This document shows positions 6,690 to 49,286 of a stretch of DNA of 64,000 bases, piece after piece. The notes beneath the pieces are model-generated. The model saw nothing but the letters and a program-made list of their open reading frames with translations, made no database searches and was not told the DNA's origin. The stretch is from a virus (lineage: Duplodnaviria > Heunggongvirae > Uroviricota > Caudoviricetes): the IMG/VR virus record IMGVR_UViG_3300045256_000127. One strand, given 5' to 3'. Made by a program: the position numbers and the translations under genes. How positions within the stretch are numbered: position 1 is the first letter of the stretch; each line of letters opens with the position of its first letter.

Positions 6690-6720
6690 ACGAGGGGCGG
6701 TTTCCCGCCCCTCGTCTTTT
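6690..6720. terminator. rho-independent terminator (possibly bidirectional)
   Basis: Hairpin cgaggggcgg-tttc-ccgcccctcg followed by tctttt, placed between convergent genes. Confidence 0.6.
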
Positions 6721-6997: not shown

Positions 6998-7010
6998 TAA
7001 GTAACAATTC

Positions 7011-7519
7011 TTACGACAGGTCGGGCCGGATGTAGGATGACATGTCGGGCACGACACAGTATCCGCCATTTTCGGTTTTGGTAACGATCTGACCCTGCGT
7101 CTTGAGCTTCTTGCGGACGGCGGTCATGTGGTTGCAGAGAGTTGAGTCGGACAAATCCATCCCGTCGAACTGTTCCCGGAGGGTCTTGAGAGAGACGACC
7201 TTCTTCGCCTGGAACTGCGACTCGATCCATTTCCTGACCGTCGCCGCCTCCTTTAAGATTACAGTTCGAGGCTTGGAGTCTTTCACGACGTTCTTCGGAT
7301 ATATTTCCTTAACCACCGTGGCCGTCACGTCCTGGTTGGCGTTGGCGTCACACAGGGCTTGGGCGAGTTCACCGAGTTCAAGCGGCTCCGTGTCCGCTTC
7401 CACTTCACTAAGCTCGGCACGAAACGTCTTAGCGTACTCAATTATGGAAGGTAGGTTTTTCTTGGACGTGAACAGCTTCCGTTTGTCCTTCGTCCGAATC
7501 ATGATGAGGTTCTGGTTCA
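7011..7519 (-). CDS. hypothetical protein, possible winged-helix DNA-binding
   Basis: Start at MNQNLIMIRTKDKRK. The C-terminal region looks wHTH-like. Composition is coding. Confidence 0.5.
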
Positions 7520-7566
7520 TGTAAATCCCCCGAAAAGGTTTACCCTGTGTTATAGCAGGAAGTCCC

Positions 7567-7596
7567 TTGACAATCAATACTTTAAGCGAATATAAA
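7567..7596 (+). promoter_or_regulatory. sigma70-type promoter (TTGACA-N17-ATATAAA) driving a near-leaderless mRNA
   Basis: TTGACA at 7567-7572, a 17-nt spacer, then ATATAAA at 7590-7596. The predicted TSS falls at or next to the ATG at 7604. Confidence 0.55.
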
Positions 7597-7603
7597 GGGC
7601 AGT

Positions 7604-8617
7604 ATGGATGATTTCGTAACATGCGACGTGAGTCGCCGGATCGGCGTCGAGATCGAGTTGAACACACCTACCGGAGAGATCAAGCCGCTCAAGAAGAATG
7701 AGGCACCCGAGGGTGCAGACTATGTAGGCGTCTTGGTTAATAAATCCACGGCAAAAAAGACCACCGTCCACGGCTGGCACTCGACCCACGACAACACCGG
7801 CTGGGTCATCAAACCCGACTCGTCCTGCGGCATCGAAGTCTGTTCGCCCATCGGCAAAGGCTGGGACCACATCGTCAGCATCGCCCAGGTCGCCGAGGAC
7901 ATCCGCACCTGCGGTAAGATCGGGGCGGACAGCCGGTGTTCGCTCCACGCCCACATCGACGCTCACGACCTGGACGACCGGCAACTGGCTTCGATCTTAG
8001 CCTACTGGATCAAGTGCGAGGCCGTCATCAACGACGCCTTCCCGTCCAAGCGAAAGCTCAACCGATACTGTCAGTACATCGGGATCAGCGACCTGTTCGA
8101 CGCCCACGAGGAGTACAGTCCCTACGAGATCATCCGCCTGCTGTCCGGGGCGAAGTATTACTCAGTGAACACGTTCCACCTTCAGCGGGGCAACCGCCGG
8201 AGCTTCGAGGTTCGGTACGGCGAGAACGAGATGTGTACCGACGCCTTCTCGATGAAGAACTGGTTGCTGTTCGTCTTGCACTTCTGTCGCTGCGCCCTGG
8301 ATGCGGGGTTGCCGTGGAGGCCGCAGCAGGGCGACGTGCAGACGGGCCTCTACTGGTTCGATCCGGTGGACATGTTCAAGTTCCTCCGCTGGGACAACCC
8401 GGACATCCTGAGTCCTTCACTGAGGCAAGTCCGGCGATGGTACTTGGGACGACTGTCGGAATACACGATAGACACGGGGCTGCCGGGGATTTGGTCATAC
8501 GAAGCGAGGAGAATTGCTTACGAACAGGTGCTAGATATGCTGGGCCAGGAGAAGTTGGAGCCGGGCCTGTACAAGCCGACCGAGGGCGAACTATTCGGGA
8601 AGGAATACTTGTTCTAA
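7604..8617 (+). CDS. amidoligase-family enzyme (glutamine synthetase-like fold, Amidoligase_2)
   Basis: GVEIEL...HGWHSTHDNTGWVIKPDSSCGIEVCSP...SLHAHID matches the amidoligase family signature. Confidence 0.7.
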   Translation: MDDFVTCDVSRRIGVEIELNTPTGEIKPLKKNEAPEGADYVGVLVNKSTAKKTTVHGWHSTHDNTGWVIKPDSSCGIEVCSPIGKGWDHIVSIAQVAEDIRTCGKIGADSRCSLHAHIDAHDLDDRQLASILAYWIKCEAVINDAFPSKRKLNRYCQYIGISDLFDAHEEYSPYEIIRLLSGAKYYSVNTFHLQRGNRRSFEVRYGENEMCTDAFSMKNWLLFVLHFCRCALDAGLPWRPQQGDVQTGLYWFDPVDMFKFLRWDNPDILSPSLRQVRRWYLGRLSEYTIDTGLPGIWSYEARRIAYEQVLDMLGQEKLEPGLYKPTEGELFGKEYLF

Positions 8618-9045
8618 TGAAACTACAAGAAGAAGTTGAGTCGATGCGGCGGATGTCCACGATGCTCAGCCGCTACTCGTACCCGGTGAAAGACCTGAAG
8701 GACGAGATCGACATCTACCCACTCAAGACACGCACACTGACGGTGGACGGCTACGAAGTCATCGCCCACCTGAACATAGCCGAGTACGGCCGGTTCAACA
8801 TCGAGATTTTACAACTCGAATCGGCCCGCTCGATCTACCTGCCGATGCACCTTTTGGTGAAGCTCGGCAAGCTATTCCTGGGTAGCGAGGAAGTCTGCTA
8901 CATCGAGTTCTACCGCAACAATCGGAAGGTGTACTGCTGGACGGTTAGGCGGAAGGGCGACACATGCCTGCCGCCGCTCGGGGAGATTTTACCCCGTGAA
9001 TTCGAGGGGTTTTCGTTTTATGTCGCAAAACCTGAAACGAATTAA
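8617..9045 (+). CDS. hypothetical protein
   Basis: ATG overlaps the upstream TAA (TAATG). Coding-like composition. Confidence 0.5.
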   Translation: MKLQEEVESMRRMSTMLSRYSYPVKDLKDEIDIYPLKTRTLTVDGYEVIAHLNIAEYGRFNIEILQLESARSIYLPMHLLVKLGKLFLGSEEVCYIEFYRNNRKVYCWTVRRKGDTCLPPLGEILPREFEGFSFYVAKPETN

Positions 9046-9125
9046 ATCCGTTAACAGGGATACATATTCCCGTACAGACCAGTTACTTGCCGGGTCTGTT
9101 CTCTAACAAAAAAGAGGTAAGGATC

Positions 9126-9437
9126 ATGCACAAGTCCAAGTCGAAGGCTCGCAAAATCCAGAAGCTACTTACCGACCATTTGCTGAACTGCGGGGTTATC
9201 GAACTCCGTCTGCCAGATGGTATCAACCTGGAAATCGGTATCACGAAGGAGGGCAAGGATGGCGTCGAAATCAGTGATGATTACTGCTTCGTGAAGGCAA
9301 GCCGAGATCACAGTTCCACCCTACTCGACACGCATGTCGTGTCCATGCAGTACGAAGATTCCCGGAACAGCGTCATTTGTCTGGACAACACCTACACCGA
9401 CGACGGCACCGCCGTCAAACGGGTTGAGGTTGTCTAA
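9126..9437 (+). CDS. hypothetical protein
   Basis: RBS AAGAGGTAAGG upstream of MHKSKSKARK. Confidence 0.45.
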   Translation: MHKSKSKARKIQKLLTDHLLNCGVIELRLPDGINLEIGITKEGKDGVEISDDYCFVKASRDHSSTLLDTHVVSMQYEDSRNSVICLDNTYTDDGTAVKRVEVV

Positions 9438-24007: not shown

Positions 24008-26068
24008 ATGGAAAAAACAGCATTGACCAAATACTCTGCGGGCTTCGACCGCAAGAAGTACCTCGAACTGAACCAAGAGATGAGCTATGACGAGTACATC
24101 GCTCACGCTCTGAAGAACCCTCGGGTCGCACGGAACGCATTTCAGTACATCTACGACATGATTATGTCGAAGGGCACTTCGGAGTTCGAGCGATACCGCA
24201 AGACCTACACCCACTATAACTTCTTCGACGATCCCAAGATTCCGATCTACGGTCTTGAAGAAACACTCGACCAATTGGTGAACTTTATCCACGGGGCAGC
24301 CGGTGGGTACGGCACCGAGAAGCGGGTACTCCTTCTCCACGGCCCGGTCGGATCGGCAAAGTCCACGATCTGCCGCTTGCTTAAGAAGGGGTTGGAAGAA
24401 TACTCCAAGACCCGTGAGGGTGCTTGGTACAGTTATAAGTGGGTTAATCTACCCACGGAAGGCGAGTTCGCCGTCTCCACGACGACGGAAGACCCGTGCC
24501 CGCTGCACGAAGACCCGAGTCGTCTGATGGACCCGGACCAGCGTGAAGCGTTCTTCGCCGACCTGAACCTGTCCCTGGCCGAAGCATCCGGCGGGGAGGC
24601 ACCGTACAAGCTCCGCAGCGAAGGGGAAATGTGCCCCCGGTGCAAGACGTACATGAAGATGCTGCTGAAGAAGTACGACGGCGATTGGGACAAGATCGTC
24701 CGTGACCACATCCGTGTCGTCCGGCTCGTCCACAGCGAGATCGACCGGGTTGGCGTCGGCACCTTCCAGCCGAAGGACGAGAAGAACCAGGACTCGACCG
24801 AACTGACGGGCGACCTGAACTTCGGCAAGGTGAGCCACTACGGGTCCGACTCGGACAGCCGTGCCTTCAACTTCGACGGCGAGTTCTGCGTTGCCAACCG
24901 TGGCGTGATGGAATTCATCGAAATGCTCAAGTTGAGCAACGAGTTCCTTTACGACCTGCTGGGTGCCTCGCAGGAACACAACATCAAGCCGAAGAAGTTC
25001 CCGCAGGTCAAGATCGACCAGTTCATCGTGGGCCACACCAACCACGCCGAACTCGAACGCCTGCAAGGCAACCGCTTCATGGAAGCCCTCCGTGACCGGA
25101 CGGTGAAGATCGACGTGCCGTACCTGCTCCGCTGGACGGACGAGATCAAGGTGCTGGAGAGCGACTACGGTCCAGGCAAGGTGAAGCAGCACATCATGCC
25201 GCACACCCTGGAGATCGCAGCCCTCTTCGCAATCCTCACCCGTCTGAAGGACGACAAGGACGTGAAGCTCGACCTTCGGGACAAGGCCAAGCTGTACGAC
25301 GGCCGGGCACTGCCGGGCTGGACGGAAGACTCGGTAAAGGAACTGAGGGACAAGTACCCGACGGAAGGTCTGGATCAGGGCGTGTCCGCACGTTACATCC
25401 AAGACAAGATTTCGAACTGCTTGGCTCGTAGCGTCAAGGGTTACGTCAACGTCTTCCACGTTCTGAACGAACTGAAGGCAGGGTTCTACAACTCGTCCAT
25501 GATTGATGTCGAACACATCAAGAAGTACGAGGAAGCCCTGGACTTGGCGATCAAGGAGCTTCAGGAAATCCTGAAGGCCGAGGTTCAGAAGGCGTTGGTG
25601 GCCGACGAGAACATCATCGAACGGGTCTGTGCCAAGTACATTGACAACGTGGTGGCGTATGTCAACAAGGAAAAGATCATCAACCCGATCACCAAGCAGC
25701 CCCAGGAGCCTGATGAGCGGCTGATGCGGAGCATCGAAGAGAAGATCGACATCCCCGAGCAAGGTGCCAACGACTTCCGCCGGAGCTTGGCGTCGTTCAT
25801 CGGGACGCTGACGATCAAGAAGAAGGAGTTCCGGTGGGACAGCAACCCGGAACTGCGGCGTGCCCTTGAGGCGAAGGTGTTCGAGGACACCAGGGACTCC
25901 ATCAAGCTGTCGGCCCTCACGGGCGAGGCAGCGGCAGCCGACCCGGACAGCCGGGAAAAGCTGGAGGCCATCAAGGTCCGACTCATCAACCAGTACGGGT
26001 ACAACGAACAGTCCGCCACGGACGTTCTGGAATACGTCGCCAGCCTGTTCACGGGCGGCACCGACTGA
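24008..26068 (+). CDS. prkA: PrkA/YeaG-family serine protein kinase (AAA+ N-domain)
   Basis: Collinear with E. coli YeaG: Walker A LLLHGPVGSAKST (YeaG LYLLGPVGGGKSS) and CVANRGVMEFIEMLK (YeaG CRANQGIMEFVEMFK). About 686 aa, as in PrkA. Confidence 0.85.
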   Translation: MEKTALTKYSAGFDRKKYLELNQEMSYDEYIAHALKNPRVARNAFQYIYDMIMSKGTSEFERYRKTYTHYNFFDDPKIPIYGLEETLDQLVNFIHGAAGGYGTEKRVLLLHGPVGSAKSTICRLLKKGLEEYSKTREGAWYSYKWVNLPTEGEFAVSTTTEDPCPLHEDPSRLMDPDQREAFFADLNLSLAEASGGEAPYKLRSEGEMCPRCKTYMKMLLKKYDGDWDKIVRDHIRVVRLVHSEIDRVGVGTFQPKDEKNQDSTELTGDLNFGKVSHYGSDSDSRAFNFDGEFCVANRGVMEFIEMLKLSNEFLYDLLGASQEHNIKPKKFPQVKIDQFIVGHTNHAELERLQGNRFMEALRDRTVKIDVPYLLRWTDEIKVLESDYGPGKVKQHIMPHTLEIAALFAILTRLKDDKDVKLDLRDKAKLYDGRALPGWTEDSVKELRDKYPTEGLDQGVSARYIQDKISNCLARSVKGYVNVFHVLNELKAGFYNSSMIDVEHIKKYEEALDLAIKELQEILKAEVQKALVADENIIERVCAKYIDNVVAYVNKEKIINPITKQPQEPDERLMRSIEEKIDIPEQGANDFRRSLASFIGTLTIKKKEFRWDSNPELRRALEAKVFEDTRDSIKLSALTGEAAAADPDSREKLEAIKVRLINQYGYNEQSATDVLEYVASLFTGGTD

Positions 26069-26086
26069 TAAGCAGTAGCCCTGAGA

Positions 26087-26116
26087 AAGCCCGGCCAAGT
26101 GCCGGGCTTTTTCTTT
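26087..26116 (+). terminator. rho-independent terminator
   Basis: aagcccggc-caagt-gccgggctt followed by tttctttaat. Confidence 0.65.
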
Positions 26117-26151
26117 AATAGGACTTCCAAATGTAAGCCGGATTGTGTAAT

Positions 26152-26601
26152 ATGTTGGGCATGGGTGTTAGTCCATTCAAGCGGTCTTCCTCCGGCCCCC
26201 GACGAGCGTACTACCCGTCCGGCCCCTGGATCGACGAAAACGGCAAGCCGTGCAAGTCGCCGACTTACGCTGCTTCCGATTACGACAAGAAGAAGCGGAA
26301 GAAGACGGAGCCGCCGAACCCCGACCCGCACAACTACAAGTTCGTGCGTGTCGAGGAAGCAGATGGATTTCTCTTAGTCCAACTCAATTATCCTGACTGC
26401 ACCAACTATGAGGGGAACAAGATTCTTCTCTTCAGGGGTGTGAAGCTGATCGATCTGGTCAACCAGAAATACATCGACCCACACTTCTTCCAAGCGAAGG
26501 ATATCGCCTCCCCCATTGCCCGCTTCGTCCCCACGGAAGAGGGTTGGAAAATGGGCCTTACTTTAATCACAGCGTTGAAAGCGAGTACGAATGCCTCGTA
26601 G
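26152..26601 (+). CDS. hypothetical protein inserted between prkA and yeaH homologues
   Basis: ORF with coding composition. Start is MLGMG or MGV. TAATAT -10-like element just upstream. Confidence 0.4.
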   Translation: MLGMGVSPFKRSSSGPRRAYYPSGPWIDENGKPCKSPTYAASDYDKKKRKKTEPPNPDPHNYKFVRVEEADGFLLVQLNYPDCTNYEGNKILLFRGVKLIDLVNQKYIDPHFFQAKDIASPIARFVPTEEGWKMGLTLITALKASTNAS

Positions 26602-27787
26602 AATTCAAGAAGACCACAAAGACTTCCGGGACGTTGTAGGCGGACGTGTCCGTAGGGAACTGAAGAAGTTCCTGAAAGGGAAGGTCGTCCGCCTACGACC
26701 GAAGAACGGGAAGCTCCAGTTCACCATCCCGCAGATCGACCAGCCGCACTTCCTCCACGGGGACAACGGCGAGGGCGTCGGCCGGGGCAAGGGTAAGAAG
26801 GGTCAGGTCATCGGCCAAGACCCGCAAGAGGGCGATCCGCAGGCTGGCGAAGAACACGCCGACGGGATCACCATCCAGGTCGATCTCGAAGAAGTGTTGA
26901 AGGTCATGCAGGAAGAACTCGGCCTGCCGGACCTGAAGCCGAAGCCGTCGGAAGTGTACGAGGAAGTCAAGACGGTTTACAACGACATCTCGAAGGTCGG
27001 CCCGGAATCGCTACGCCACACCCGCCGCACGATGTACGAGGCGATGAAGCGGATGGCGATGATGGGCACGCTGGGCGAGAAGAAGATGCTCCCCGGCCAC
27101 TCCGTCCCGATGCGGGTCATCACCCTGGCCGACGGGGACCGCCGCTACCGTCAGTACAAAGAGATCAAGATTCCGTCGTCGAACGCCGTGGTGTTCTTCA
27201 TCCGGGACTACTCCGGGTCGATGGACGACTTCCGCTGCGACATCGTTTCCGACATGTCCTGGTGGATCGACGTGTGGATTCGCAAGTTCTACGAGCGGGT
27301 AGAGCGGGTCTACATGATCCACGACACGGAGGCCGAAGAGGTAGACGAGAAGAAGTTCTACGAAGTCCGGTTCGGCGGCGGCACCAAGATTTCGTGTGCC
27401 TTCGACGAGGCGGCGAAGATGCTGGAGAACCGCTTCCCGGCCCACAACTACAACATCTACGTCATCTACTTCTCTGACGGCGACAATTGGGAAGAAGACA
27501 ACGCCAAAGTGTCCGACCTGTTGGGTAAGAAGTTCCCGCCGGAAGTGGTGAACATGGTCGGGTTCGTGCAGATTTGCACCTACAACTACTCACGCAGTAT
27601 CAAGAAGTTCGTTGACGAACAGATCAAGACCGGGGCCATCGGCAAGAACGTCCGCACGGTTACGATTGGTGAAGAGTCCTCCGACAGCAGCAGCATGTTC
27701 GGCGGCGGCACGCTCATGACGCCCGAGGAGCGGGACGAGCAAATCCTGAAGGGAATCAAGACTCTGTTCGGTAAGGAGAAGAACTAA
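26591..27787 (+). CDS. yeaH: YeaH/YhbH-family DUF444 protein (vWA-like)
   Basis: FIRDYSGSMDD (YeaH CLMDVSGSMDQ) and YVIYFSDGDNWEED (YeaH YAAQASDGDNWADD). Gly/Lys-rich N-terminus as in YeaH. Confidence 0.8.
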   Translation: MPRRIQEDHKDFRDVVGGRVRRELKKFLKGKVVRLRPKNGKLQFTIPQIDQPHFLHGDNGEGVGRGKGKKGQVIGQDPQEGDPQAGEEHADGITIQVDLEEVLKVMQEELGLPDLKPKPSEVYEEVKTVYNDISKVGPESLRHTRRTMYEAMKRMAMMGTLGEKKMLPGHSVPMRVITLADGDRRYRQYKEIKIPSSNAVVFFIRDYSGSMDDFRCDIVSDMSWWIDVWIRKFYERVERVYMIHDTEAEEVDEKKFYEVRFGGGTKISCAFDEAAKMLENRFPAHNYNIYVIYFSDGDNWEEDNAKVSDLLGKKFPPEVVNMVGFVQICTYNYSRSIKKFVDEQIKTGAIGKNVRTVTIGEESSDSSSMFGGGTLMTPEERDEQILKGIKTLFGKEKN

Positions 27788-29388
27788 TGGCTATCAGCAA
27801 AATGTTGAACGGTTCGCCTATCCTGATGGGCAACAACAACGTGCCGGGCGTTCGCATTCACAAAGAAGTCATGGATGTCATGGACACCATCTTCAGTGAA
27901 TGCCGTAAGTTCGGCCTGGACTTCTACCCAACCATCGTCGAGTTCTTGACCTACGACGAAATCTCCGAGATCGCCTCATACGGCGGCTTCCCGATCCGCT
28001 ACCCGCACTGGAGCTTCGGGATGGAGTACGAGGAACTGTCCCGTGGGTACGAGTACGGCATGCACCGGATCAGCGAGATGGTTGTGAACAACAACCCTTG
28101 CTACATCTACTGCCTGGACTCGAACACGCTGGTGGACAACATCGACGTGATCGCCCACGCCCTCGGCCACAACCACTTCTTCAAGAACAACGTGTTCTTC
28201 AAGGGGACGCACACCGGCATGATGGGCAAGTTCGCCGACCATGCCCGCCGCATCCGTAAGTACATGGCCCGGTGGGGCAAGGAGCGGGTGACGGAGTTCA
28301 TCGACCACTGCCTGCGGCTGAACACGCTCATCGACCCGATGGACAACCTGTATCAGAAGCAGATCAACGACGTGATCGTCAGCGACCACCGGGAATACCG
28401 GACGCCGAACCGCCGTCACGCCTCGTCGAACTACATGGACGACTGGATCAACCCGGTCGAGTACATCAAGAAGGAGAACGAGAAGATCGAAAAGGCGGAC
28501 GCCGCCGACTACCTGGACATCTTCGACAAGCCGAACCGTAACATCTTCGGCTATCTGCGTGACCACGCCCCGCTCAAACCGTGGCAGCAGGACATCATCA
28601 GCATGCTGTACGAGGAGGCAATGTACTTCTCGCCGCAGCGGTTGACGAAGATGTTGAACGAAGGGTTCGCCTCGTACACCGACTACTACCTGATGTGCGT
28701 CCACGGGCTGTGCGGCCTCGGCCAGAAGCGGCACGACATGGGCATCATCCAGTACGCCAAGCACAAGATGTTGGTTTTGGGCGGCAAGTACAGCCAGAAC
28801 CCTTACAAGCTGGGCTTCGAGCTACTGACCGACATCGAGGAGCGGTGGAACAAGGGCCGCTTCGGTCGGGAGTACGAGGAGTGCAAGAGCATGAAGGAGC
28901 GGGCCGAGTGGGACAAGAAGCTCGGGCTGGGCAAGGAGAAGGTGTTCGAAGTCTGCCAGTTCTACAACGACGCCCTGGCGATTGCGGAATTCTTCACGCC
29001 GGACTTCTGCGAGAAGATGGAATACTTCGAGTACAAGAAGTTTAATAACGGCCAGACGAAGATTCAGAGCCGGGACTACCATAGTATTAAGTCGCAACTC
29101 GTCCGGCGTTACATGAATGGCGGGTTGCCAGATATTCGTCTGACCGACCCGAACCACCTGGGCAAAGGCTGGTTCCTCATGCAGCACTACGGTTGCGGGC
29201 TGCCGCTGTACGATCCTTACGCAAAGGAAACGATCACATCGGTGTTCCGCATCTGGGGTAGCCCCGTGGTTCTGGCTACGAAGAACCCGGACGGTGAGGA
29301 ATTCGTCTACCTCTGCGATGGGACGAACTCCGAGAAGGATGTTCACGTCATGAGACGGGCGGACTACGAGAAGGAGTTTGTCAAATGA
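27787..29388 (+). CDS. spoVR: SpoVR/YcgB-family protein
   Basis: Length about 530 aa and several conserved SpoVR blocks (FPIRYPHWSFGMEYEEL, IAHALGHNHFFKNN, WQQDIISMLYEEAMYF). Start ATG overlaps the yeaH stop as TAATG. Confidence 0.8.
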   Translation: MAISKMLNGSPILMGNNNVPGVRIHKEVMDVMDTIFSECRKFGLDFYPTIVEFLTYDEISEIASYGGFPIRYPHWSFGMEYEELSRGYEYGMHRISEMVVNNNPCYIYCLDSNTLVDNIDVIAHALGHNHFFKNNVFFKGTHTGMMGKFADHARRIRKYMARWGKERVTEFIDHCLRLNTLIDPMDNLYQKQINDVIVSDHREYRTPNRRHASSNYMDDWINPVEYIKKENEKIEKADAADYLDIFDKPNRNIFGYLRDHAPLKPWQQDIISMLYEEAMYFSPQRLTKMLNEGFASYTDYYLMCVHGLCGLGQKRHDMGIIQYAKHKMLVLGGKYSQNPYKLGFELLTDIEERWNKGRFGREYEECKSMKERAEWDKKLGLGKEKVFEVCQFYNDALAIAEFFTPDFCEKMEYFEYKKFNNGQTKIQSRDYHSIKSQLVRRYMNGGLPDIRLTDPNHLGKGWFLMQHYGCGLPLYDPYAKETITSVFRIWGSPVVLATKNPDGEEFVYLCDGTNSEKDVHVMRRADYEKEFVK

Positions 29389-33008: not shown

Positions 33009-33091
33009 AGAAATTCGGCTAGGAAGCCGATACAATGGGCACGGGCGAAGATGCCCGTGCCTGTTTTGTTTCCAAACCAGGGAAGGTTAAC

Positions 33092-34462
33092 ATGTCGAAT
33101 ATGAAGCACCCCATCATGGGGTACGAGAACCTGCACCGCCACTCCGAGTACAGTCTGCTGGACGGGTTCGCAAAGGTCGGCGAGTACGCCGCCTACTCCA
33201 AAGAGGCAAACCAGCGTTACCTCTGCATCACCGACCACGGCGTCATGGGGGCCGTTCCGCAGCAGGTCGGCGAGTCCGAAAAGCACGGCCTGAAGCCCAT
33301 CTTCGGCATCGAGTTCTACATCAACCCGATGCAGCCCAAGTCCGAGTACCGTGAGCAGAACGCCGAATTCCGTAAGGGGTTGGGCACCGAGGAAGAACAG
33401 AAGCGGTTCGACAAGAGTCACCACCTGCTCGGCATCGCCCGCACCAACCAGGGCTACACCAACCTCGTGCGGCTGAGTACCTGGGCCTGGGTTCACGGCT
33501 ACTACCGTCGGCCCCGCATCAACCACGACATCCTGAATCAGTACAAAGAAGGGATCATCTTCACGAGTACCTGTGCCAACAGTGAAATCGCCAACGCCTT
33601 CTTCGACCACGGCGAGGAAGCGGGGATGGCGAAGGTGCAGCAGTACATCGACTTCTTCGGGAAAGAGAACTTCTTCCTCGAACTGATGATGCTCGACTTC
33701 AAGATGCAGAAGCCCTACGACGCCTTCCTGCTACGGGCGATGGATCGGTTCGGCCTGCAAGTCCTGCTCTCCACCGACTGCCACTACTGCAAGAAGGAAC
33801 ACGCCCTGAACCAGCGGATGATGCTCATGGTTCAGACGGGCCGGACCATGCAGGAGATCGAAGCCCTCGTCGCTTCGGGTGCGGCCGACGACCTGTTCGA
33901 GCTTCAGGACACGAACCTGTGGATGAAGACCGAAGATGAGATGAACCAGATGTGGGAGGAGAAGTACCAGGACACCATCGACTACGAAATCTTCAAGTGT
34001 GCGAAGGCGAACACGGTGAAGGTGTGCGAGATGTGTGCCGGGGTGCAGATCGACCGGGGCATCAAGCTGCCGATTGAGGAAGACGAAAAGAAGCAGTTGA
34101 TGAAGTTGATCCGGGAGGGCGTGGACCGGCGGAAGGTGCCGATGACCCGCCAGTACCTTGACCGAATCAAGGAAGAGTACCAACTGATCTGTGACAAGGG
34201 GTTCGCCTCGTACTTCCTGATTCAGAAGAAGATGGTGGATGAGGCGTTGCGGGTGTGCCCGGAGATTTACGGGTTTCAGGACTCGTCGATGGCCCGAGGG
34301 CCGGGGCGGGGGTCAGTAGGCGGCTCGCTGGTCGCCTACTGTCTGGACATTCACGATCTCGATCCGATCAAGCACGGGCTGCTGTTCTCTCGGTTCCTCA
34401 GCCCGGCTCGTGGTGGTAAGCAGATGAAAACTCGCTTCTCGCTTAGCCCCTGCGGCGGTTAA
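33092..34462 (+). CDS. dnaE: DNA polymerase III alpha (DnaE) N-terminal fragment: PHP domain to the GPGRGS helix
   Basis: PHP motif LHRHSEYSLLDG. DnaE hallmark GPGRGSVGGSLVAYCLDI...FLSPAR. Ends 16 aa after FLSPAR, before the catalytic PDxDxDF. Confidence 0.8.
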   Translation: MSNMKHPIMGYENLHRHSEYSLLDGFAKVGEYAAYSKEANQRYLCITDHGVMGAVPQQVGESEKHGLKPIFGIEFYINPMQPKSEYREQNAEFRKGLGTEEEQKRFDKSHHLLGIARTNQGYTNLVRLSTWAWVHGYYRRPRINHDILNQYKEGIIFTSTCANSEIANAFFDHGEEAGMAKVQQYIDFFGKENFFLELMMLDFKMQKPYDAFLLRAMDRFGLQVLLSTDCHYCKKEHALNQRMMLMVQTGRTMQEIEALVASGAADDLFELQDTNLWMKTEDEMNQMWEEKYQDTIDYEIFKCAKANTVKVCEMCAGVQIDRGIKLPIEEDEKKQLMKLIREGVDRRKVPMTRQYLDRIKEEYQLICDKGFASYFLIQKKMVDEALRVCPEIYGFQDSSMARGPGRGSVGGSLVAYCLDIHDLDPIKHGLLFSRFLSPARGGKQMKTRFSLSPCGG

Positions 34463-36429: not shown

Positions 36430-37311
36430 ATGATGCTGGAACTCGCAGTCGCCGACGCCTACGGGGCATGTTTTGAAACCCTGTCGGCAAAGGACATCGG
36501 CGACACGAACGACCTGTCCTACCACAAGCGACTCCAGCCGTCGATCATCAAGCGGGGTAAGTACACCGACGACGCCCAGATGAGCATCGGCGTGGCCGAA
36601 GCTATTCTGGAACGGGACGAGTGGACGAAGCCCTACCTCGCCCAGAAGTTCGTCGATGTCTTCCGCCGTGACCCCCGACGGGGCTACACCGGCCCGTTCT
36701 TCAACATCTTGACCGAGTGCCAGACCGGCGGCGACCTTCTCTCGAAAGTGGACGGCAAGAGCCGCAAGGGCGGCGGCTGCATGAGGGCCGGGCCGTGCGG
36801 CCTCTACCCGACGCTGGAAGAGGTTCAGGAACGGGCCGTCGAGCAGGCGAAGATCACCCACAACTCTGTCGTCGGCGTCATGAGTGCCGCTGCTGCGGCG
36901 TTCATGGTTCACTACTTCGCCTACGATTTGGGAGAGAAAGCCGACCTACGGGAATGGCTGCACAACAACAACTTCCCGTCGAAAGTCACCGGGGCTATCG
37001 ACGACCCGGAGGGCGAGTTCCGTGTTTGGGAACCCGGCCAGAAGGTCGGCAACTTCGGCTGGAGTGTCGTCCTGGCTGCTCTCGCCGCCATCGAGCGGAC
37101 CGATTCCCTGGCCGAGTGCCTGAAGCAGTGCGTGGCCTGGGGCGGCGACACGGACACGGTGGCGACCGTCGCCCTGGCTGCGGCGTCCTGGTCGAAGGAG
37201 ATGAAGAAGGACATGCCGCAGGGACTTGTTGACATGTTGGAGAACGGCAGGTATGGTAGGGACTACCTGATCGAGTTGGATAACAAACTGAAGGCCAAGT
37301 TCGGCCTGTAA
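36430..37311 (+). CDS. ADP-ribosylglycohydrolase (ARH/DraG family)
   Basis: N-terminal ADAYGACFE, hallmark YTDDAQM, and C-terminal GGDTDTVATVALAAAS metal-binding motif. Confidence 0.75.
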   Translation: MMLELAVADAYGACFETLSAKDIGDTNDLSYHKRLQPSIIKRGKYTDDAQMSIGVAEAILERDEWTKPYLAQKFVDVFRRDPRRGYTGPFFNILTECQTGGDLLSKVDGKSRKGGGCMRAGPCGLYPTLEEVQERAVEQAKITHNSVVGVMSAAAAAFMVHYFAYDLGEKADLREWLHNNNFPSKVTGAIDDPEGEFRVWEPGQKVGNFGWSVVLAALAAIERTDSLAECLKQCVAWGGDTDTVATVALAAASWSKEMKKDMPQGLVDMLENGRYGRDYLIELDNKLKAKFGL

Positions 37312-37545: not shown

Positions 37546-38277
37546 ATGTTCCCTAGCGGCATTAACGAACTGGCGAAGAATGTCCCTCTGCCGAAGTACC
37601 AGGAACTCCGCATCCTCCTGATGCCGATTGTCCTGGGGGACGCCAGCACGAACCCGTACCCCGACTGCAACCCGATGTTGGAAGTGATGGCAGCGGTCCA
37701 GCCCCAGCACAAGGGGAAGGTCTGTTACCTGACTATCGACCAGAAGGGTGTTCCGGCTGGGAAGACGCACCGTCGTGCCGGGCTGCACGTTGACGGCTAC
37801 CCGTACACCGAAGCCGACAAGCGGATGCTGGACGGCGGATACATTACCTCTGGCGCTGGCGGCATCTGGGCGGCAAACGCCCACGGCGGCACCTGGGGCG
37901 GTGGTGGTGGCTGGGGAGGCGGTAATTCCGCTCTCTACTGGCACATGGGTAACGGCTTGCTGACGGTTTCGAGCGTCGAGGGCTGTGTCGCCTGGAACCA
38001 GGAATTCCCCGGCGAGCCGAAGGTCGAAGGGGATTGTGAACATCTTCGGGAACACTGCAAGGAGGAGTGTAAGGTCGTACTCAAAGCGAATACCCTCTAC
38101 TGGATGAGTCCGGGGTGCGTCCACGAGTCGCTGCCGCAGCCGGTGGACGTGATCCGCACCTTCGTGCGGCTCTCGCTGCCGTCTAAGTGCGATTGGTACG
38201 AGGGTTGTACTCCGAACCCGCTCGGCGTGAAGCCGACGGGGAAGATCAGCCGCCGTCGCCGCTTCTTGGACGTGTAA
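37546..38277 (+). CDS. hypothetical protein; possible Fe(II)/2OG-dioxygenase-like HxD...H triad and a Gly/Trp-rich loop
   Basis: LHVDGYPY (HxD) ... GCVHES (distal H). A GGTWGGGGGWGGGN low-complexity insert. Weak. Confidence 0.45.
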   Translation: MFPSGINELAKNVPLPKYQELRILLMPIVLGDASTNPYPDCNPMLEVMAAVQPQHKGKVCYLTIDQKGVPAGKTHRRAGLHVDGYPYTEADKRMLDGGYITSGAGGIWAANAHGGTWGGGGGWGGGNSALYWHMGNGLLTVSSVEGCVAWNQEFPGEPKVEGDCEHLREHCKEECKVVLKANTLYWMSPGCVHESLPQPVDVIRTFVRLSLPSKCDWYEGCTPNPLGVKPTGKISRRRRFLDV

Positions 38278-38326: not shown

Positions 38327-38720
38327 GGGGCCGCTCCGGTATCGAACCGGCGTCAACGGCCGAAAGGACTTGCGTAGTGGTTGGTCGGTGGGCCACTTAA
38401 AAAAGCCGACTAAGCCTTAACTGGCGATACTCTCAGAATGGCTGCCTGAGTTGTGCCCTCGCAAGGGGGCACCGCAATAGCGGCCAAATGAGTCTTCGGA
38501 CTCAGGGACTCACAGAAGCGATGCTCCAAGCGTCTGTGTTTCTCACGCCAAAAAGGAGACGAAGCCTAGTGAGTGTCGGTTGTAGCTAGGCGGGTCGCTA
38601 ACCGAGAATCCCGGTGGTTTTGCCAGTTGTACGGCACCGTGGATTATCAACAACTGGATACACGCATAAACGCCTTCGGAAGTTCGCTTGGTCACAGGGG
38701 TTCGACTCCCCTCGGCTCCA
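38327..38720 (+). ncRNA. ssrA: tmRNA (SsrA)
   Basis: 5' GGGGCCGCUCCGGUAUCGAAC and 3' GGGGUUCGACUCCCCUCGGCUCCA are collinear with the E. coli tmRNA ends. The acceptor stem pairs with a G3-U70 wobble (alanine identity). CCA is not encoded. About 394 nt. Confidence 0.75.
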
Positions 38721-38728
38721 CTAAGAAA

Positions 38729-38776: not shown

Positions 38777-39337
38777 ATGTCTACAACACAAGTCACCTGT
38801 GCCCACTGCGGCACGTCATTCTCCAAACGCACAGCAGAAGTTAATCGCTCAGTCAAGCTGGGCCGTAAACACTACTGCAATCGTTCTTGCATGGGGAAAG
38901 ACCAACTCGACCACATGCCGTTAGTAAAGCGTGCCAATGCCCAGCACCTTCGAGGCCACGAGAGCAACCGCAAAGACGAGTACAGCCCGTTCCGCTGGCA
39001 CTTCCGCAATGCGATCCGCCGCTCACAAGAGTCGGATCGCAAAGAATGCACGATCACCCTCGATGATCTGAAGAAGCAGTGGGACGACCAGAAAGGAAAG
39101 TGCCCGTACACTGGCTGGGAACTAAAGAACCTGCCAGATACCAACACCAAGAAGCAGCTTCCTCTTACACCAGACCGTGCGAGCCTGGACCGAAAGGATT
39201 CGTCAAAGGGATACGTCCCCGGCAACATCCAGTTCGTCTCGACGATGGCGAACTACGCCAAAAACCGCTGGGGAGATCAAGAGCTATTCGAGTTCTGTGC
39301 TGCGGTTTACAAGGGGCATGTTTCGGGTAAAATGTAG
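38777..39337 (+). CDS. HNH-family homing-endonuclease-like protein (HNH_3 type) with an N-terminal zinc ribbon
   Basis: CAHCG...C..C N-terminus. C-terminal ASLDRKDSSKGYVPGNIQFVS matches the SLDRIDNSKGYxxGNV block of phage HNH_3 endonucleases. Confidence 0.6.
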   Translation: MSTTQVTCAHCGTSFSKRTAEVNRSVKLGRKHYCNRSCMGKDQLDHMPLVKRANAQHLRGHESNRKDEYSPFRWHFRNAIRRSQESDRKECTITLDDLKKQWDDQKGKCPYTGWELKNLPDTNTKKQLPLTPDRASLDRKDSSKGYVPGNIQFVSTMANYAKNRWGDQELFEFCAAVYKGHVSGKM

Positions 39338-39353: not shown

Positions 39354-40445
39354 ATGCCAGCGAAGAAGACGTACTCAGAAGTCGTTAAGTTCTTCCAAAA
39401 ACAAGGCCATACACTCCTCACTGAAACCTACCTCGGTTGTAATCAAACTCTCACTTTCAAGTGTCGTTGCGGCGGCACCGGCACCACTACGTTCGCTATG
39501 ATGCGTGCTATCGTCAACCGGGGGAATACGTCTGGTTGTAAAGAATGCCGTGGTGATCGCATCGGCGTCTCCAGCCGATTTACTATTGAGCATGCCAAAC
39601 AAGTCTATGCCGATGCAGGCTGCAAGCTACTAGAAGATCAATACGTCAACCACATCACCCCTATGCGGTACATCTGCTTCTGCGGACGTGAGGGGCGGAC
39701 GAGCTACAACTATTTCACCCAGCACGGGCGGCATTGTAAACAATGCGGTTTTGAAAAACGCACTGAGAAAATCAAGTTCTCCCAAGAGGAGGTTGAAGCT
39801 ATCTTCGAAGCAGAGAACTGTCTCCTCCTCGGCACATACACCGGCTATCACGATTACATTGATTACATCGCTCAATGTAATCACAAAAGTAACGTCACCC
39901 TACAGTATTTCCGAGTCGGGGGCGGTCGGCAGTGCTGGAAGTGCAGTTGGGAAAACAGGGGGTGGCGTGGCCCAGACTGGACTTTCGAGCAGGTCCGTGA
40001 TTACGTCGCCTCCCACGGCTGCGTGCTGCTCTCCACCAGCTACAGCGGCGTGAAAGACCAGATTGAGTACCGCTGCATCTGTGGGTTTCAAACCGAAATC
40101 CGATTCAGCAACTTCAAAGAAGGACACCGTTGCAAAGAATGTTCCAACCGGCTCGGTGGAGATCGCAGGCGGCACTCCTTCGAATTCGTCAAACTCTTCT
40201 TCCAAGAAGCGGGGTGCCGACTCCTCGCCGATGAGTACGTCGGAAAGGACACGGTGATGCCCTACATCTGCGTTTGCGGTCGAAAATCCAAAATCTGCTT
40301 CGCCAGCTTCGCCCGAGGGAGTCGCTGTAAAGACTGTGGGTTCGTGAAGATCAGTGAATCACAACAACTCGCTCGGCGGCTCTGGGAGGAGGCAGAACTA
40401 GGCGATCTGGACAAAATTCTCTCAGACCGCTTGCGTTGTGATTGA
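39354..40445 (+). CDS. tandem-repeat Cys4 zinc-ribbon module protein (about 7 modules)
   Basis: Repeated about 48-aa module: F..(Q/E)GC.LL...Y......(M/L).Y.C.CG(R).......F..G.RC..CG. Confidence 0.55.
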   Translation: MPAKKTYSEVVKFFQKQGHTLLTETYLGCNQTLTFKCRCGGTGTTTFAMMRAIVNRGNTSGCKECRGDRIGVSSRFTIEHAKQVYADAGCKLLEDQYVNHITPMRYICFCGREGRTSYNYFTQHGRHCKQCGFEKRTEKIKFSQEEVEAIFEAENCLLLGTYTGYHDYIDYIAQCNHKSNVTLQYFRVGGGRQCWKCSWENRGWRGPDWTFEQVRDYVASHGCVLLSTSYSGVKDQIEYRCICGFQTEIRFSNFKEGHRCKECSNRLGGDRRRHSFEFVKLFFQEAGCRLLADEYVGKDTVMPYICVCGRKSKICFASFARGSRCKDCGFVKISESQQLARRLWEEAELGDLDKILSDRLRCD

Positions 40446-40495
40446 GTTGTGTTTAAGATGTGTTTGTGTTGAGGAGACGAGGCAAGGAGGCCGGA

Positions 40496-41407
40496 ATGAG
40501 GAGGCTGACATTCGAGTTCGTGCGGGATGAATTCCGCAAGGCGGGTTGCACACTCCTAGCGACCAGCTACTCCCGCAACAGCGAAAAGCTTCCTTATATC
40601 TGCAAGTGTGGTCGTCGGTCGCAGATCACTTGGAATAAATTCAAAGAAGGGCAACGGTGTTATGATTGCCGCAATCGCAAGATCGGCGATTGCAAACGGA
40701 CCGACTACGAAGATGTGGTCGCATATTATTACGACCAGCAATGTACCCTGCTTGCGGATAAGTATCACGATTGTGATACCCCGATGCCGTTCATTTGTGT
40801 CTGCGGCAGAGAAGGTATAACCACCTTCTATAACTTCAAACATCTTGGGGTTCGATGTCTCGCTTGTGCCCACGAGAAGACGGGGGACGCATATAGGTAT
40901 ACCCTTGAGCAAGTTAAGGAATTCTTTCTCGATCAAGGGTGTGTACTTCTTGCAGATAAGTATGTAAATGCCTTCACAGTGATGCCTTACCTGTGTCATT
41001 GTGGAAGGTATGCCGAGATCATTTGGAATTCCTTCCAACGGGGGAACAGGTGTAAGGCGTGTGGTATCGAAAAAATTGCGAATGACCGGAAGTTCAGCTA
41101 CGAATATGTCAAGATGTACTTTGAGGGGCGGGGGTGTACCCTCCTATCTTCCGAGTATGTCAACTCTCAGACGCCACTGGAGTACCGTTGTGCCTGTGGC
41201 GAAATTGCTAAAGTAACCTTCAACCGCTTTACCTCTCAGGGATCGCTGTGTTGGAGTTGCCGTGATCGTAGAGCATGGCAGGTACGTCGAGAGAACGAGA
41301 AGCTGTGGAATGAGTCCAACTTGGACGCAGACCTTGACCGATTACTCACAGAGAGGTGCCGTGGAGAGCAGGCATCCCTCTTAAACAACGCTCTCAAGGA
41401 GAAGTAA
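40496..41407 (+). CDS. tandem-repeat Cys4 zinc-ribbon module protein (paralogue, about 6-7 modules)
   Basis: Same module as the upstream gene. CAAGGAGG RBS then MRRLTFEFVRDEF. Confidence 0.55.
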   Translation: MRRLTFEFVRDEFRKAGCTLLATSYSRNSEKLPYICKCGRRSQITWNKFKEGQRCYDCRNRKIGDCKRTDYEDVVAYYYDQQCTLLADKYHDCDTPMPFICVCGREGITTFYNFKHLGVRCLACAHEKTGDAYRYTLEQVKEFFLDQGCVLLADKYVNAFTVMPYLCHCGRYAEIIWNSFQRGNRCKACGIEKIANDRKFSYEYVKMYFEGRGCTLLSSEYVNSQTPLEYRCACGEIAKVTFNRFTSQGSLCWSCRDRRAWQVRRENEKLWNESNLDADLDRLLTERCRGEQASLLNNALKEK

Positions 41408-41408: not shown

Positions 41409-42140
41409 ATGGCGGCACACATGAACGAAGTTGGCACCGAGGCGAAGGCGATCCTGGCCGACGTGGGCAAGATCGGCAAGCGGGTGATGGAGCAATACTA
41501 CCGGGGCTTCCTGGCAGCCCTGCACGATGTCCATAAGGGCTGGCGGCATCTCAAGCCCCGTGAGCGGAAGGTCGTGTTCGAGAAGGTGCAGGACACGGCG
41601 AAGGAACTCATCGTCTGCAAGGAGGACGGCGGCGGGGCCGACGACGGCTTGGCCCTGGGCACTTTCCACGGGTACGTCTGCAAAATCAAGCGTGCCCTGA
41701 TCTTCAACGTTCCGCTGGAGATCGCCGAGCGGGCGACGAACCAGGAACTCCAAAAGGCCCAGGTGTACGTCAACGACGTGCTTAAGGAATCGCCACAACC
41801 GCTCGAAGACAAGATGGTTCTGGCCTACAAGTGGGTCAAGGAGGAACAGATCAAGGCGAAGCAGCGGTTGAAAGAAGAGGCCGACAGGCTCATCAACCAA
41901 CCGACTGCGGCCACCCTGGAGACGGCATACACCCTGCCCGATCCCGATCAGTATAAGGAGGAGGATTCAGACGCCCTGCTCAACGACATCATCCACGGCA
42001 TCCATGCGTGTTTGACCAGTCGGGGGCTGAAGCCGCATCTGACGAAGGATACCCCGGCGGCACGAGTGCTTCGGCGGGTTCTCGGCGAAATCTCGGTGTA
42101 CGAGACTTTGGGCGAATCGCCCTGCACGGCCGCTGGCTAA
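41409..42140 (+). CDS. hypothetical protein
   Basis: 243-aa ORF. A stem-loop follows at 42150-42178. Confidence 0.45.
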   Translation: MAAHMNEVGTEAKAILADVGKIGKRVMEQYYRGFLAALHDVHKGWRHLKPRERKVVFEKVQDTAKELIVCKEDGGGADDGLALGTFHGYVCKIKRALIFNVPLEIAERATNQELQKAQVYVNDVLKESPQPLEDKMVLAYKWVKEEQIKAKQRLKEEADRLINQPTAATLETAYTLPDPDQYKEEDSDALLNDIIHGIHACLTSRGLKPHLTKDTPAARVLRRVLGEISVYETLGESPCTAAG

Positions 42141-46625: not shown

Positions 46626-49286
46626 ATGAAGGAACGTGACGAACTGGTAGCCCTGCTGGAAGCGGCTTTGGACGCAAAGGGCTTACGGAACGATCAGTAC
46701 ACAAATCGACTGGCTCTCGAACTGAAAGAACTCGACGTTCTTGAAGAACACGAATACTTTCTCAAGCTGCACAAAGAGGGGAAGAAGTACCCTGAGAACG
46801 AGAACAACCTTCTCGTCCCATATCTGCTCGACCTGTGCCCCGACTTCGACATCAACCGGGAACCCGCCTACAACCAGGGCGAGTTCCCCGACATCGACAT
46901 GGACTACCTGCCGCTCGTCCGTGACCACTTGAAGAACGAGTGGGCGGTGAAGGAGTACGGCCGGGATTACGTCTGCTCCATCGGCACCTACGGCACCCTG
47001 GGCATCAAGGCAGCCATGCTCGACATGGCCCGTGTCCACGGCGTCCCGAAGGACGAAGTGCAGATGGTTACGAAACAGGTCGAAGACAAGGACGACGAAG
47101 GCGAGCCGATGGAGTGGGACAAGGCTCTCGAACTCTACGCCGACTTCAAGGCGTTCTGCGAGCGGCACCCGGACGTGGCCGCAGCCGCCAAGATGATGCT
47201 GGACCGGAACAAATCGGGCGGCGTCCACGCCGGGGGACTCATCATCTCCTCCAAGCCGATCCAAGACTTCGTGCCGCTCGAAGTGCGGTCAGTGAAGAAG
47301 GAGAACAAGCACGGCGTCCTCGTCTCGGCGTGGTGCGAGGGGCAGGCCACCCAGGACTTGCAGCCGGTCGGGCTGGTGAAGTTCGACTTGCTGGTGGTGG
47401 ACGGGTTGATGCAGATCGCCCAGGCGTGCGAACTCATCCGCCAGCGGCACGGCATCGAGCGGATCAACGCCCTGCCGGGCGGGCGGAACTGGAGCGACAC
47501 GGCCTACCTCAACGACCCGAAGGCGTTGGCGATGGCGAACAAGGCCGACCTGAAGTGCGTGTTCCAGTTCGGGTCGGACGGCATCCGGGCGATGGTCAAG
47601 CGGGGCGGCGTGACGAGCTTCGACGACCTGATGGCGTACTCGGCCCTCTACCGCCCCGGCCCGCTGAACATGGGGATGGATAAGCACTACTGCGACCGGA
47701 AGAAGGGGATCGAGCAGTGGAGCATCCACCCGCTGCTCATGCCGATCCTGGGGCGGACTTACGGGGTTCTTGTTTACCAAGAGCAGTGTATGCAAGTCCT
47801 CCACACGGTAGGACTCATCCCGCTCATTCACTGCGAGAAGGTCCGCAAGGCCATCTCGAAGAAGAAGATCGCCCTGTTCGCCAAGTACAAGGACATGTTC
47901 ATTACGAACGGTCAGAAGGTACTCGGCGAGAGCGAGGAGTTCGTCCGTGACCTGTGGGACCAGATCGAGGCGTTCGCCGACTACGGCTTCAACGCCAGCC
48001 ACAGTTGTGCGTACACCTACATCTCCTCCCGGCAGTTGTGGCTCAAGGCCCACTACCCGCTGGAGTATTACACTGCGGTCCTGATGTGCGAAGACCAGTC
48101 GGACAAGATTAAGGAGATCAAGCAGGACGCCCGGAAGCACGGCATCGAAGTCAAGCCGGTGCATATCAACCACAGCCGGGAACTGTTCCGCATCGTGGAC
48201 AACGACATCTACTACGGGTTCAGTAACCTGAAGAAAGTCGGCGAGGCGGTGGCGAAGCGGATCGTGGCGGGGCAACCCTACGCCTCGTTCGAGGACTTCC
48301 TGCAACGGTTCGGGACCGACATGCAGGTGTTGAAGCCGCTCATCTCCCTCGGCGTGTTCGAGGAGAAGGTGGACCGGATCACGCTGTACAAGTTCTACGA
48401 CAAGTACAGCGATTGGCTCAAGAAGTGTAAGAGCCGGGACAAGCGGTTCGAGGAGAGCCAAGCCAAGTACGAAACCGAACTCCGGGAACTGCTGAAGCAG
48501 TACGGGGCGGACGAGAAGGAAGTCGAGGCGATGGCCCGGTTCGACGATGATGTCATCAGTGAATGGGAAGCCCGGTTCGGCAACATCAAGGTCGAACAGC
48601 AGTACAAGTACAAGGGCGAGATGCGGACCCGTGAAGTGTCCGTGGTCAAGTTCATGACCGACATCCACGGGCGGCGGAACAAGGGCGTGCGAGGCCAGGA
48701 GGAGAAGACCCGGCTCGACCAAGAGGAACCGCCGACCCTGGCGACCTTCAACGCTAAGACGTGGCCGCTGGAGCAGGCGATCATCGAACTGCTCTCCGAC
48801 GAGAAGGCAGCCGAACAGGAATACTACGGCTTCCAGTGGGTACACGACCTGGAAGAAAGCCCCGACTACGAAGGGTTCACCATCGACCGCTTCACCGAGG
48901 TTGTGGCGAACCGGAAGGAGCCGAGGGGTGCCATCGAGGTTAAGGTACTCCAGGTGACGAAGCGGGAGTTCAAGACCGGCACCATCGCCTACGACGTGAA
49001 GGTGGAAGACGCCAACGGCAAGGTGGTGATCGTCCGGTTCTGGAGCGACGACTACACCCGGTTCCAAGAGGAGATCACGCCCGGTGCGCTCCTACGGCTG
49101 CACGTCAAGCCGCCGGAAGGGTTCCCGAGCTATTCCTTCTGGGCACCGCCGAAGCACCTGCGGCACCGGCTTGTCCCGAAGGATAAGAGCCTGGACGACC
49201 GGCTGTACGTCCTGACGCCGGGGGCGAAGAAGGTTGTCGTGCAAGAGGAGAAACCGGAAGAGGGATTCGAACTGATGGAAGCCTGA
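46626..49286 (+). CDS. dnaE: DNA polymerase III alpha (DnaE) C-terminal fragment: catalytic palm, fingers and OB fold
   Basis: PDIDMDY...YGRDYVCSIGTYGTLGIKAAMLDMARVHG (E. coli PDFDVDF...[29 protein letters not shown]), HAGGLIIS (E. coli HAGGVVIA), and a C-terminal OB-like domain. Confidence 0.85.
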   Translation: MKERDELVALLEAALDAKGLRNDQYTNRLALELKELDVLEEHEYFLKLHKEGKKYPENENNLLVPYLLDLCPDFDINREPAYNQGEFPDIDMDYLPLVRDHLKNEWAVKEYGRDYVCSIGTYGTLGIKAAMLDMARVHGVPKDEVQMVTKQVEDKDDEGEPMEWDKALELYADFKAFCERHPDVAAAAKMMLDRNKSGGVHAGGLIISSKPIQDFVPLEVRSVKKENKHGVLVSAWCEGQATQDLQPVGLVKFDLLVVDGLMQIAQACELIRQRHGIERINALPGGRNWSDTAYLNDPKALAMANKADLKCVFQFGSDGIRAMVKRGGVTSFDDLMAYSALYRPGPLNMGMDKHYCDRKKGIEQWSIHPLLMPILGRTYGVLVYQEQCMQVLHTVGLIPLIHCEKVRKAISKKKIALFAKYKDMFITNGQKVLGESEEFVRDLWDQIEAFADYGFNASHSCAYTYISSRQLWLKAHYPLEYYTAVLMCEDQSDKIKEIKQDARKHGIEVKPVHINHSRELFRIVDNDIYYGFSNLKKVGEAVAKRIVAGQPYASFEDFLQRFGTDMQVLKPLISLGVFEEKVDRITLYKFYDKYSDWLKKCKSRDKRFEESQAKYETELRELLKQYGADEKEVEAMARFDDDVISEWEARFGNIKVEQQYKYKGEMRTREVSVVKFMTDIHGRRNKGVRGQEEKTRLDQEEPPTLATFNAKTWPLEQAIIELLSDEKAAEQEYYGFQWVHDLEESPDYEGFTIDRFTEVVANRKEPRGAIEVKVLQVTKREFKTGTIAYDVKVEDANGKVVIVRFWSDDYTRFQEEITPGALLRLHVKPPEGFPSYSFWAPPKHLRHRLVPKDKSLDDRLYVLTPGAKKVVVQEEKPEEGFELMEA

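Follow-up and report, generated by a model that had tools for sequence, protein, structure and literature searches.

The 64,000-nucleotide (nt) stretch of virus record IMGVR_UViG_3300045256_000127, here called the window, comes from a large uncultured phage and carries two adjacent plus-strand genes that encode strings of zinc-finger modules with no nuclease domain. These genes, p1 (39354-40445, 363 amino acids (aa)) and p2 (40496-41407, 303 aa), are followed by a plus-strand gene for a 243-aa orphan protein of predicted all-alpha structure (41409-42140), termed the partner in the following. Arrays of this kind form a consistent class: they are nuclease-free, contain four to six modules and a conserved tail, are linked to the orphan helical protein in 13 unrelated contexts and evolve several-fold faster than this partner. 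Neither the module nor its occurrence in arrays is new; tail-bearing stand-alone arrays with an orphan partner have not been described, as far as the searched literature shows. We consider it probable that p1 and p2 are domesticated arrays of the CapR type, which would bind specific double-stranded DNA and act together with the helical partner.

An initial annotation of the window had placed both open reading frames (ORFs) at the positions given above and had described them as paralogous concatenations of a Cys4 zinc module. Both statements are borne out: p1 and p2 are 33% identical and colinear, tails included, and every module carries a CxC…CxxC signature. The repeat count of the annotation, about 14 copies of 48 aa, is wrong; its own written pattern spans 57 residues, and 14 corresponds to the total length divided by 48. 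The CxxC pairs are found at residues 62, 128, 194, 260 and 325 of p1 and at residues 55, 121, 186 and 252 of p2, giving a period of 65-66 aa. A search with a module profile likewise detected exactly nine modules of ~66 aa, five of them in p1 and four in p2, with individual E values of 1e-24 to 1e-30. No further copy was found elsewhere in the 64-kb window at E < 1. In p1, modules 1 to 5 occupy positions 39363-39563, 39567-39761, 39765-39959, 39966-40151 and 40158-40352 on the plus strand (module hidden Markov model (HMM) E values of 3e-24, 3e-29, 8e-25, 9e-28 and 8e-30, respectively). The four modules of p2 lie on the same strand at 40496-40684, 40685-40882, 40883-41077 and 41081-41272 (E values of 4e-29, 7e-29, 8e-30 and 2e-29).

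The modules follow the shape …E.V…F…GC.LL…Y……Y.C.CG………F..G.RC..C…, in which four ligand-type cysteines, the number given by the annotation, are arranged as CxC, 17-20 residues and CxxC; a fifth cysteine is conserved in 'GC.LL'. The most divergent copy is p1 module 1, where GH replaces GC and the loop ahead of the CxxC is longer. Module 3 of p1 has the variant zinc site AxCxH…CxxC, which was also seen in modules of the homologue P0008, an HNH_3/NUMOD endonuclease. An AlphaFold2 model of p1 module 5, built on an alignment of 34 modules (mean predicted local distance difference test score (pLDDT) of 87), has a helix at its N terminus, a beta-hairpin after the CxC and, surrounding the CxxC, short helices. 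Identity between modules ranges from 21 to 56% and the repeats are not detectable as a tandem repeat at the DNA level, which confirms that they are old and diverged.

The initial annotation had recognised no named domain in the module, a claim that does not hold. By its sequence, the module belongs to the superfamily of zinc fingers that comprises the CapR homology domain (PF21817), DUF4379 (PF14311) and DUF723 (PF05265). The hallmark of this superfamily is a length of ~60-67 aa with a CxC and a CxxC pair ~17-26 residues apart, and the nine modules, of 65-66 aa with CxC…17-20…CxxC, show it. Alignment of the nine window modules with those of the homologues P0004 and P0005 by hhalign gave a probability of 99.6% (E 8e-25, 61 columns). 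P0004, which matches p1 with an E value of 4e-35, passes the Pfam thresholds for CapR (74 bits) and DUF4379 (89 bits), and P0005 passes that for CapR. Further support is provided by PHROG 559 and 681 ('HNH endonuclease', 'endonuclease'), to which p1 and p2 align outside the catalytic part of the profiles with E values of 1e-22 to 1e-35; the DNA-binding region of these families matches p1 with an E value of 3e-35, and PHROG 559 matches p2 with 3e-31. Scans of p1 and p2 against NCBIfam and a PDB sequence search with p1 returned nothing useful.

Repeated CapR, DUF723 and DUF4379 domains form the 'beads on a string' DNA-binding regions of phage homing endonucleases (PMC10448857, PMC12350094). The CapR protein of PLE, a phage satellite of Vibrio cholerae, is a zinc finger derived from homing endonucleases; it requires its four cysteines both to bind DNA and to repress, and Cys-to-Ser mutations abolish the binding (PMC8096241). 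A match to a characterised domain had been named beforehand as what would undo the finding, and such a match is largely what was obtained: since the module corresponds to a named, partly characterised DNA-binding domain, the finding as first written is mostly explained. Nor are arrays of these modules unusual, as had been supposed. In an exhaustive search the module profile matched 11,318 representative clusters, of which 1,326 reached E <= 1e-30; a single protein contains as many as 11 copies, and the best 155 family members have 2-11. The homology favours one of the roles that the annotation had proposed, that of a multivalent DNA binder; its decoy and scaffold ideas are without support.

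While the module is widespread, most of its relatives are built differently from p1 and p2. After the last module only 30 aa follow in p1 and 45 aa in p2; the nine modules and the short tails account for the whole length, and scans against Pfam, PHROG and NCBIfam detected no nuclease family in either protein. The two proteins thus lack a nuclease domain in the same polypeptide, which a homing endonuclease has, and consist of CapR-type domains without a nuclease, as do PLE CapR and the CasPR proteins discussed below. Of the best 155 family members, 131 extend by 80 aa or more beyond the array at the C terminus, 3 have an N-terminal extension and 23 are arrays alone. The 98 closest relatives with an extension include 40 with a CapR match, 20 with a DUF4379 match and 3 with a DUF723 match. 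Their extensions include HNH/HNH_2 (14 + 5), DUF2726 (8), DUF7487 (7), MTES_1575 (3) and MUG113/T5orf172 (3). In P0003, P0005 and P0007, two to five of the same modules precede an HNH domain, P0008 has an HNH_3/NUMOD architecture and P0004 ends in another C-terminal domain.

The gene directly upstream of p1 (38777-39337) encodes a 186-aa endonuclease VII (EndoVII)-like HNH protein with a Cys-rich N-terminal segment, which matches PHROG 3322 and 1035 (endonuclease / endonuclease VII). It ends 17 nt ahead of p1, and HNH is the commonest domain in the mostly nuclease-fused relatives of the arrays. The three genes could on these grounds be read as one mobile homing unit, a split homing endonuclease in which the HNH protein is catalytic and p1, p2 or both recognise DNA in trans. 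We judge this quite unlikely. No homologue of the HNH gene was found near the arrays in any other locus compared, and the idea was rejected on this lack of conservation. Besides, the nuclease of fused relatives is C-terminal (131 of 155, against three N-terminal extensions), whereas the HNH gene lies upstream, and the tail motif of p1 is that of the stand-alone, partner-linked class. We therefore take the HNH gene to encode a free-standing endonuclease that is independent of the arrays.

What is truly unusual about the region is its conserved association with the downstream 243-aa gene, which the initial annotation had missed. The start codon of the partner lies 1 nt past the p2 stop and its Shine-Dalgarno (SD) sequence (AAGGAG) is located inside the end of p2. 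In total 27 homologues of the partner were found, all of them metagenomic; scans of IMG/VR and GTDB genomes yielded none, and neither did tblastn against phage and plasmid records. Loci could be retrieved for 13 informative cases (the window, L003, L004, L005, L006, L007, L008/L009, counted as one, L011, L012, L013, L014, L015 and L016). In all 13, a zinc-finger array on the same strand is the immediate neighbour of the partner homologue, which argues against a sporadic distribution. Most arrays lie upstream of the partner, those of L003, L007 and L014 downstream. The linkage persists in L013 and L014, whose partners share no more than 26-35% identity with that of the window. At L013 159-1187 the distant homologue is paired with an array of four DUF4379 modules, and at L014 6678-7805 with an array of DUF723-type modules that has an N-terminal helix-turn-helix (HTH). 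As these arrays are of sister types, the linkage spans the whole CapR/DUF4379/DUF723 superfamily.

Across the loci, array genes contain four to six modules, and two array genes are present in the window, L004, L007 and L015. In 11 of 12 comparisons of array ORFs (loci L003-L009 and L011), the best match in the window was p2 and not p1. By this comparison, p2 is the orthologue of the single array gene that stands beside the partner in most related loci, and p1 the extra paralogue. In L004, an 80-kb ENA contig, the two arrays and the partner (6688-9200) are syntenic and all have many frameshifts; the contig name points to an assembly of long reads, and the frameshifts probably reflect sequencing errors and not pseudogenes.

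The C-terminal tails lie at 40353-40442 in p1 and 41273-41404 in p2 (plus strand). They bear a conserved motif of ~25 aa, roughly [RK]x[LM][WM]xE[AT]D[IL]xxLxxxIxER (…RRLWEEAELGDLDKILSDRLRCD in p1 and …EKLWNESNLDADLDRLLTERCRGE… in p2), which is common to p1, p2 and the partner-adjacent arrays of L004, L005, L006, L007, L008/9, L011 and L012. Some stand-alone arrays from other metagenomes carry this motif as well. When two such tail-bearing arrays, P0043 and P0092, were used for a reverse look-up, partner genes were found to adjoin both.

The arrays diverge up to ~5 times faster than their partners; between L008 and L015, for example, identity is 47% for the array and 84% for the partner. Because synonymous sites are saturated, nonsynonymous (pN) and synonymous (pS) differences and relative rates are given in place of the ratio of substitution rates (dN/dS): pN, at 0.35-0.47, was well below pS, at 0.71-0.99. 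Across 58 modules from 10 loci, the zinc ligands are retained in 56-58. Taken together, the retained ligands and the excess of synonymous over nonsynonymous differences form a pattern unlike that of decaying pseudogenes.

Homing endonuclease genes are known to degenerate after fixation, and a nuclease is missing from 15% of the best family members. The arrays might accordingly be functionless remnants that have lost their nuclease domains, and the frameshifts in the arrays of L004 would fit such decay, although its contig was probably assembled from error-prone long reads. This explanation appears highly improbable, given that both ORFs are intact, the ligands persist in 9 of 9 window modules as well as across the loci, a conserved tail outside the modules is present, all three genes have strong SD sites and array and partner are linked in 13 of 13 loci, even where partner identity falls to 26%. 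The fast divergence would also fit an arms race. Arrays that have their DNA-recognition modules in common with active endonucleases could cover the sites of related homing endonucleases, or of nucleases of the host or a competitor, and so shield the phage genome; alternatively they could act as protein or nucleic-acid decoys. Such protection or competition is in our view very unlikely: it has no direct evidence behind it and leaves the conserved helical partner unexplained, and the window contains no homing endonuclease with closely similar modules.

In 10 related loci a highly conserved ORF of ~85 aa lies between array and partner (L015, 2339-2593; L016, 3499-3774; L004, L005, L006, L008/L009, L010, L011 and L012). 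It encodes a zinc-ribbon protein of the pattern …HDPPxLVGxTxNDLTVxRKTTERQxGHVIYECxCICGRKxRVRATR…KSCGKCQ, which matches positions 191-254 of PHROG 374 'HNH endonuclease'. Apart from the block of array and partner, essentially no genes are common to the window and the other loci. IS200/IS605 genes (Y1 TnpA and/or TnpB/OrfB) directly flank the cassette in L004, L005, L006 and L016, in the last of which TnpB and TnpA lie on opposite sides. A single shared block within unrelated flanks, the IS200/IS605 neighbours and the resemblance of the small zinc-ribbon ORF to a segment of an HNH endonuclease profile are what one might expect of a selfish mobile element, in which the 243-aa protein, with or without the small zinc-ribbon protein, would serve, under guidance by the array, as a novel subunit for catalysis or recombination. 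We nevertheless regard this as unlikely. The partner is predicted to be all-alpha and has no likeness to HNH, GIY-YIG, PD-(D/E)xK or HUH folds, terminal repeats or target duplications were not identified, and no transposase is present near the locus in the window.

A bolder reading, which we put forward tentatively and hold to be doubtful, is that the array and the 243-aa protein, joined in most relatives by the zinc-ribbon protein of ~85 aa, constitute an undescribed multi-subunit DNA-targeting cassette of large uncultured phages. The rapidly diversifying string of zinc fingers, derived from homing endonucleases, would then provide programmable recognition, and the conserved tail motif would recruit a conserved non-nuclease effector to loci of the host, of a competitor or of the phage itself. 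One possible use would be the silencing of defence genes, in the manner of CasPR but with a separate effector.

For the reading of p1 and p2 as domesticated DNA-binding arrays that act with the helical partner, we envisage the following mechanism. Each ~66-aa module would fold around one Zn2+ held by CxC…CxxC, and four to five modules in series would recognise a long, specific double-stranded DNA sequence. Since p1 and p2 have no catalytic domain, we propose that they bind without cutting. They may serve as site-specific repressors or roadblocks, as their single-domain relatives PLE CapR and CasPR do. The array would be the fast-evolving targeting, or specificity, subunit, and its conserved C-terminal motif would touch the conserved helical partner.

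Several results weigh against this interpretation. A direct hmmscan of p1 and p2 against Pfam-A gave no CapR, DUF4379 or DUF723 match at E <= 1, so that superfamily membership rests on profile-profile and transitive evidence. The partner has no Pfam, PHROG or PADLOC match and no recognisable fold or family, which makes its role a guess. Characterised nuclease-free relatives have one or two CapR domains, often together with an AP2 domain, and the Pfam hmmscan found no AP2 match in p1 or p2. Finally, the composition of the cassette is not uniform, as the ~85-aa zinc-ribbon gene is absent from the window and also from L003, L007, L013 and L014.

With regard to expression signals, strong SD sequences precede both arrays (AGGAGG ahead of 39354 for p1 and AAGGAGG ahead of 40496 for p2), and p2 has an alternative GTG start at 40460. 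A consensus scan found a promoter-like site on the plus strand just 5' of p1 (39306-39333, TTTACA-16-TAAAAT, 10/12), which is weak evidence, as the number of such sites in the region did not exceed that in shuffled controls. An 11-nt tandem repeat (TTGAGTTGTGT, 3.7 copies, 76% matches) extends over the p1 stop codon and the spacer between p1 and p2 (40431-40471). Iteron-like repeats that might serve as binding sites were not found in the window. The partner has a disordered acidic linker at about residues 163-183. PADLOC-DB gave no match for p1, p2, the 243-aa protein or the HNH protein. A protein identical to p1 is present in three metagenome samples, and a megablast against phages with the region as query returned no match.

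The surroundings that the initial annotation had described, a transfer-messenger RNA (tmRNA), an HNH gene and a second DnaE part, were confirmed. The tmRNA (38327-38723; Rfam RF00023, 79 bits; ARAGORN tag peptide GDTLRMAA*) lies just upstream of the HNH gene, which separates it from p1. DnaE (DNA polymerase III alpha) is encoded by two genes 12.2 kb apart (33035-34462 and 46626-49286), with the tmRNA, the HNH gene, the zinc-finger cassette and other ORFs in the DNA between them. The split falls exactly between positions 98 and 99 of Pfam DNA_pol3_alpha. The first part contains PHP and the start of the NTPase domain and ends ~16 residues past the domain match, too soon for a classical N-intein to fit. 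In the second part, an N-terminal extension of 84 aa precedes the catalytic 'FPDIDMDY'; the resemblance of this extension to the upstream DnaE segment was not significant. The best phage relative of the C-terminal part is from an uncultured 595-kb phage (42% identity). The window, whose source contig measures 131 kb, also encodes a UvsX-like recombinase, a gp32-like single-stranded DNA-binding protein, thymidylate synthase and a helicase; in the related locus L003, capsid, portal and terminase genes lie beside the cassette.

Further features of the window were recorded. A PrkA kinase / DUF444 / SpoVR trio, like bacterial yeaG-yeaH-ycgB, is found at 24008-29388. Just upstream of the tmRNA, 36430-37311 is an ADP-ribosylglycohydrolase-like gene (PHROG 6572) and 37546-38277 belongs to PHROG 8970, a family of unknown function.

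If the arrays are targeting subunits, they would represent a natural form of modular DNA recognition in phages, with a logic comparable to that of zinc-finger or transcription activator-like effector (TALE) arrays. This would extend the idea that DNA-binding parts of homing endonucleases are repeatedly domesticated as regulators or anti-defence factors. The many natural arrays that have one conserved partner in common would also make the recognition code of CapR-type modules approachable.

The region was compared with four known systems. The CSL zinc finger of Dph3/Kti11 (PDB 1yop, 4x33) has a similar CxC(G)…CxxC zinc core, and a few module relatives have Pfam Zn_ribbon_CSL matches. The match of the module profile to the PDB is borderline (E 0.015), Dph3 is a single-domain electron carrier and not a DNA binder, and there is no evidence of a common function. 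PLE CapR (Netter et al. 2021, PMC8096241) is closer, being likewise a nuclease-free Cys4 zinc-finger protein of CapR type that stems from the DNA-binding regions of homing endonucleases; it is a transcriptional repressor that recognises a specific DNA site. In contrast to the four to five tandem modules of p1 and p2, PLE CapR has a single domain, for which neither a conserved C-terminal motif nor a linked helical partner is described. Its gene belongs to a satellite, whereas p1 and p2 reside in a large phage, and the ligand order of PLE CapR is reported as CxxC…CxC and not CxC…CxxC.

The CasPR proteins (Sanderson et al. 2026, bioRxiv 10.64898/2026.02.23.707548) resemble p1 and p2 as phage-encoded, nuclease-free CapR-domain proteins. 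They are anti-CRISPR repressors of cas genes that bind specific motifs and block transcription. They thereby set a precedent for the anti-defence role that the initial annotation had suggested, a role that p1 and p2 may have by analogy. CasPR proteins combine one or two CapR domains with AP2, sometimes also with an HTH, and require both types of domain, whereas neither AP2 nor HTH was detected in p1 and p2. Moreover, they occur in acr loci of Bacillota prophages, whereas p1 and p2 adjoin an orphan partner within a large uncultured phage, in its replication region. The T5orf172/GIY-YIG, HNH and EDxHD/Vsr homing endonucleases (Barth et al. 2023, PMC10448857; PMC12350094) have the same module, strung as 'beads on a string' in 3-11 copies, and share with the arrays a variable copy number and degenerate repeats. 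The arrays differ from them in having no nuclease, in whose place p1 and p2 carry a short conserved tail and are linked to a non-nuclease partner.

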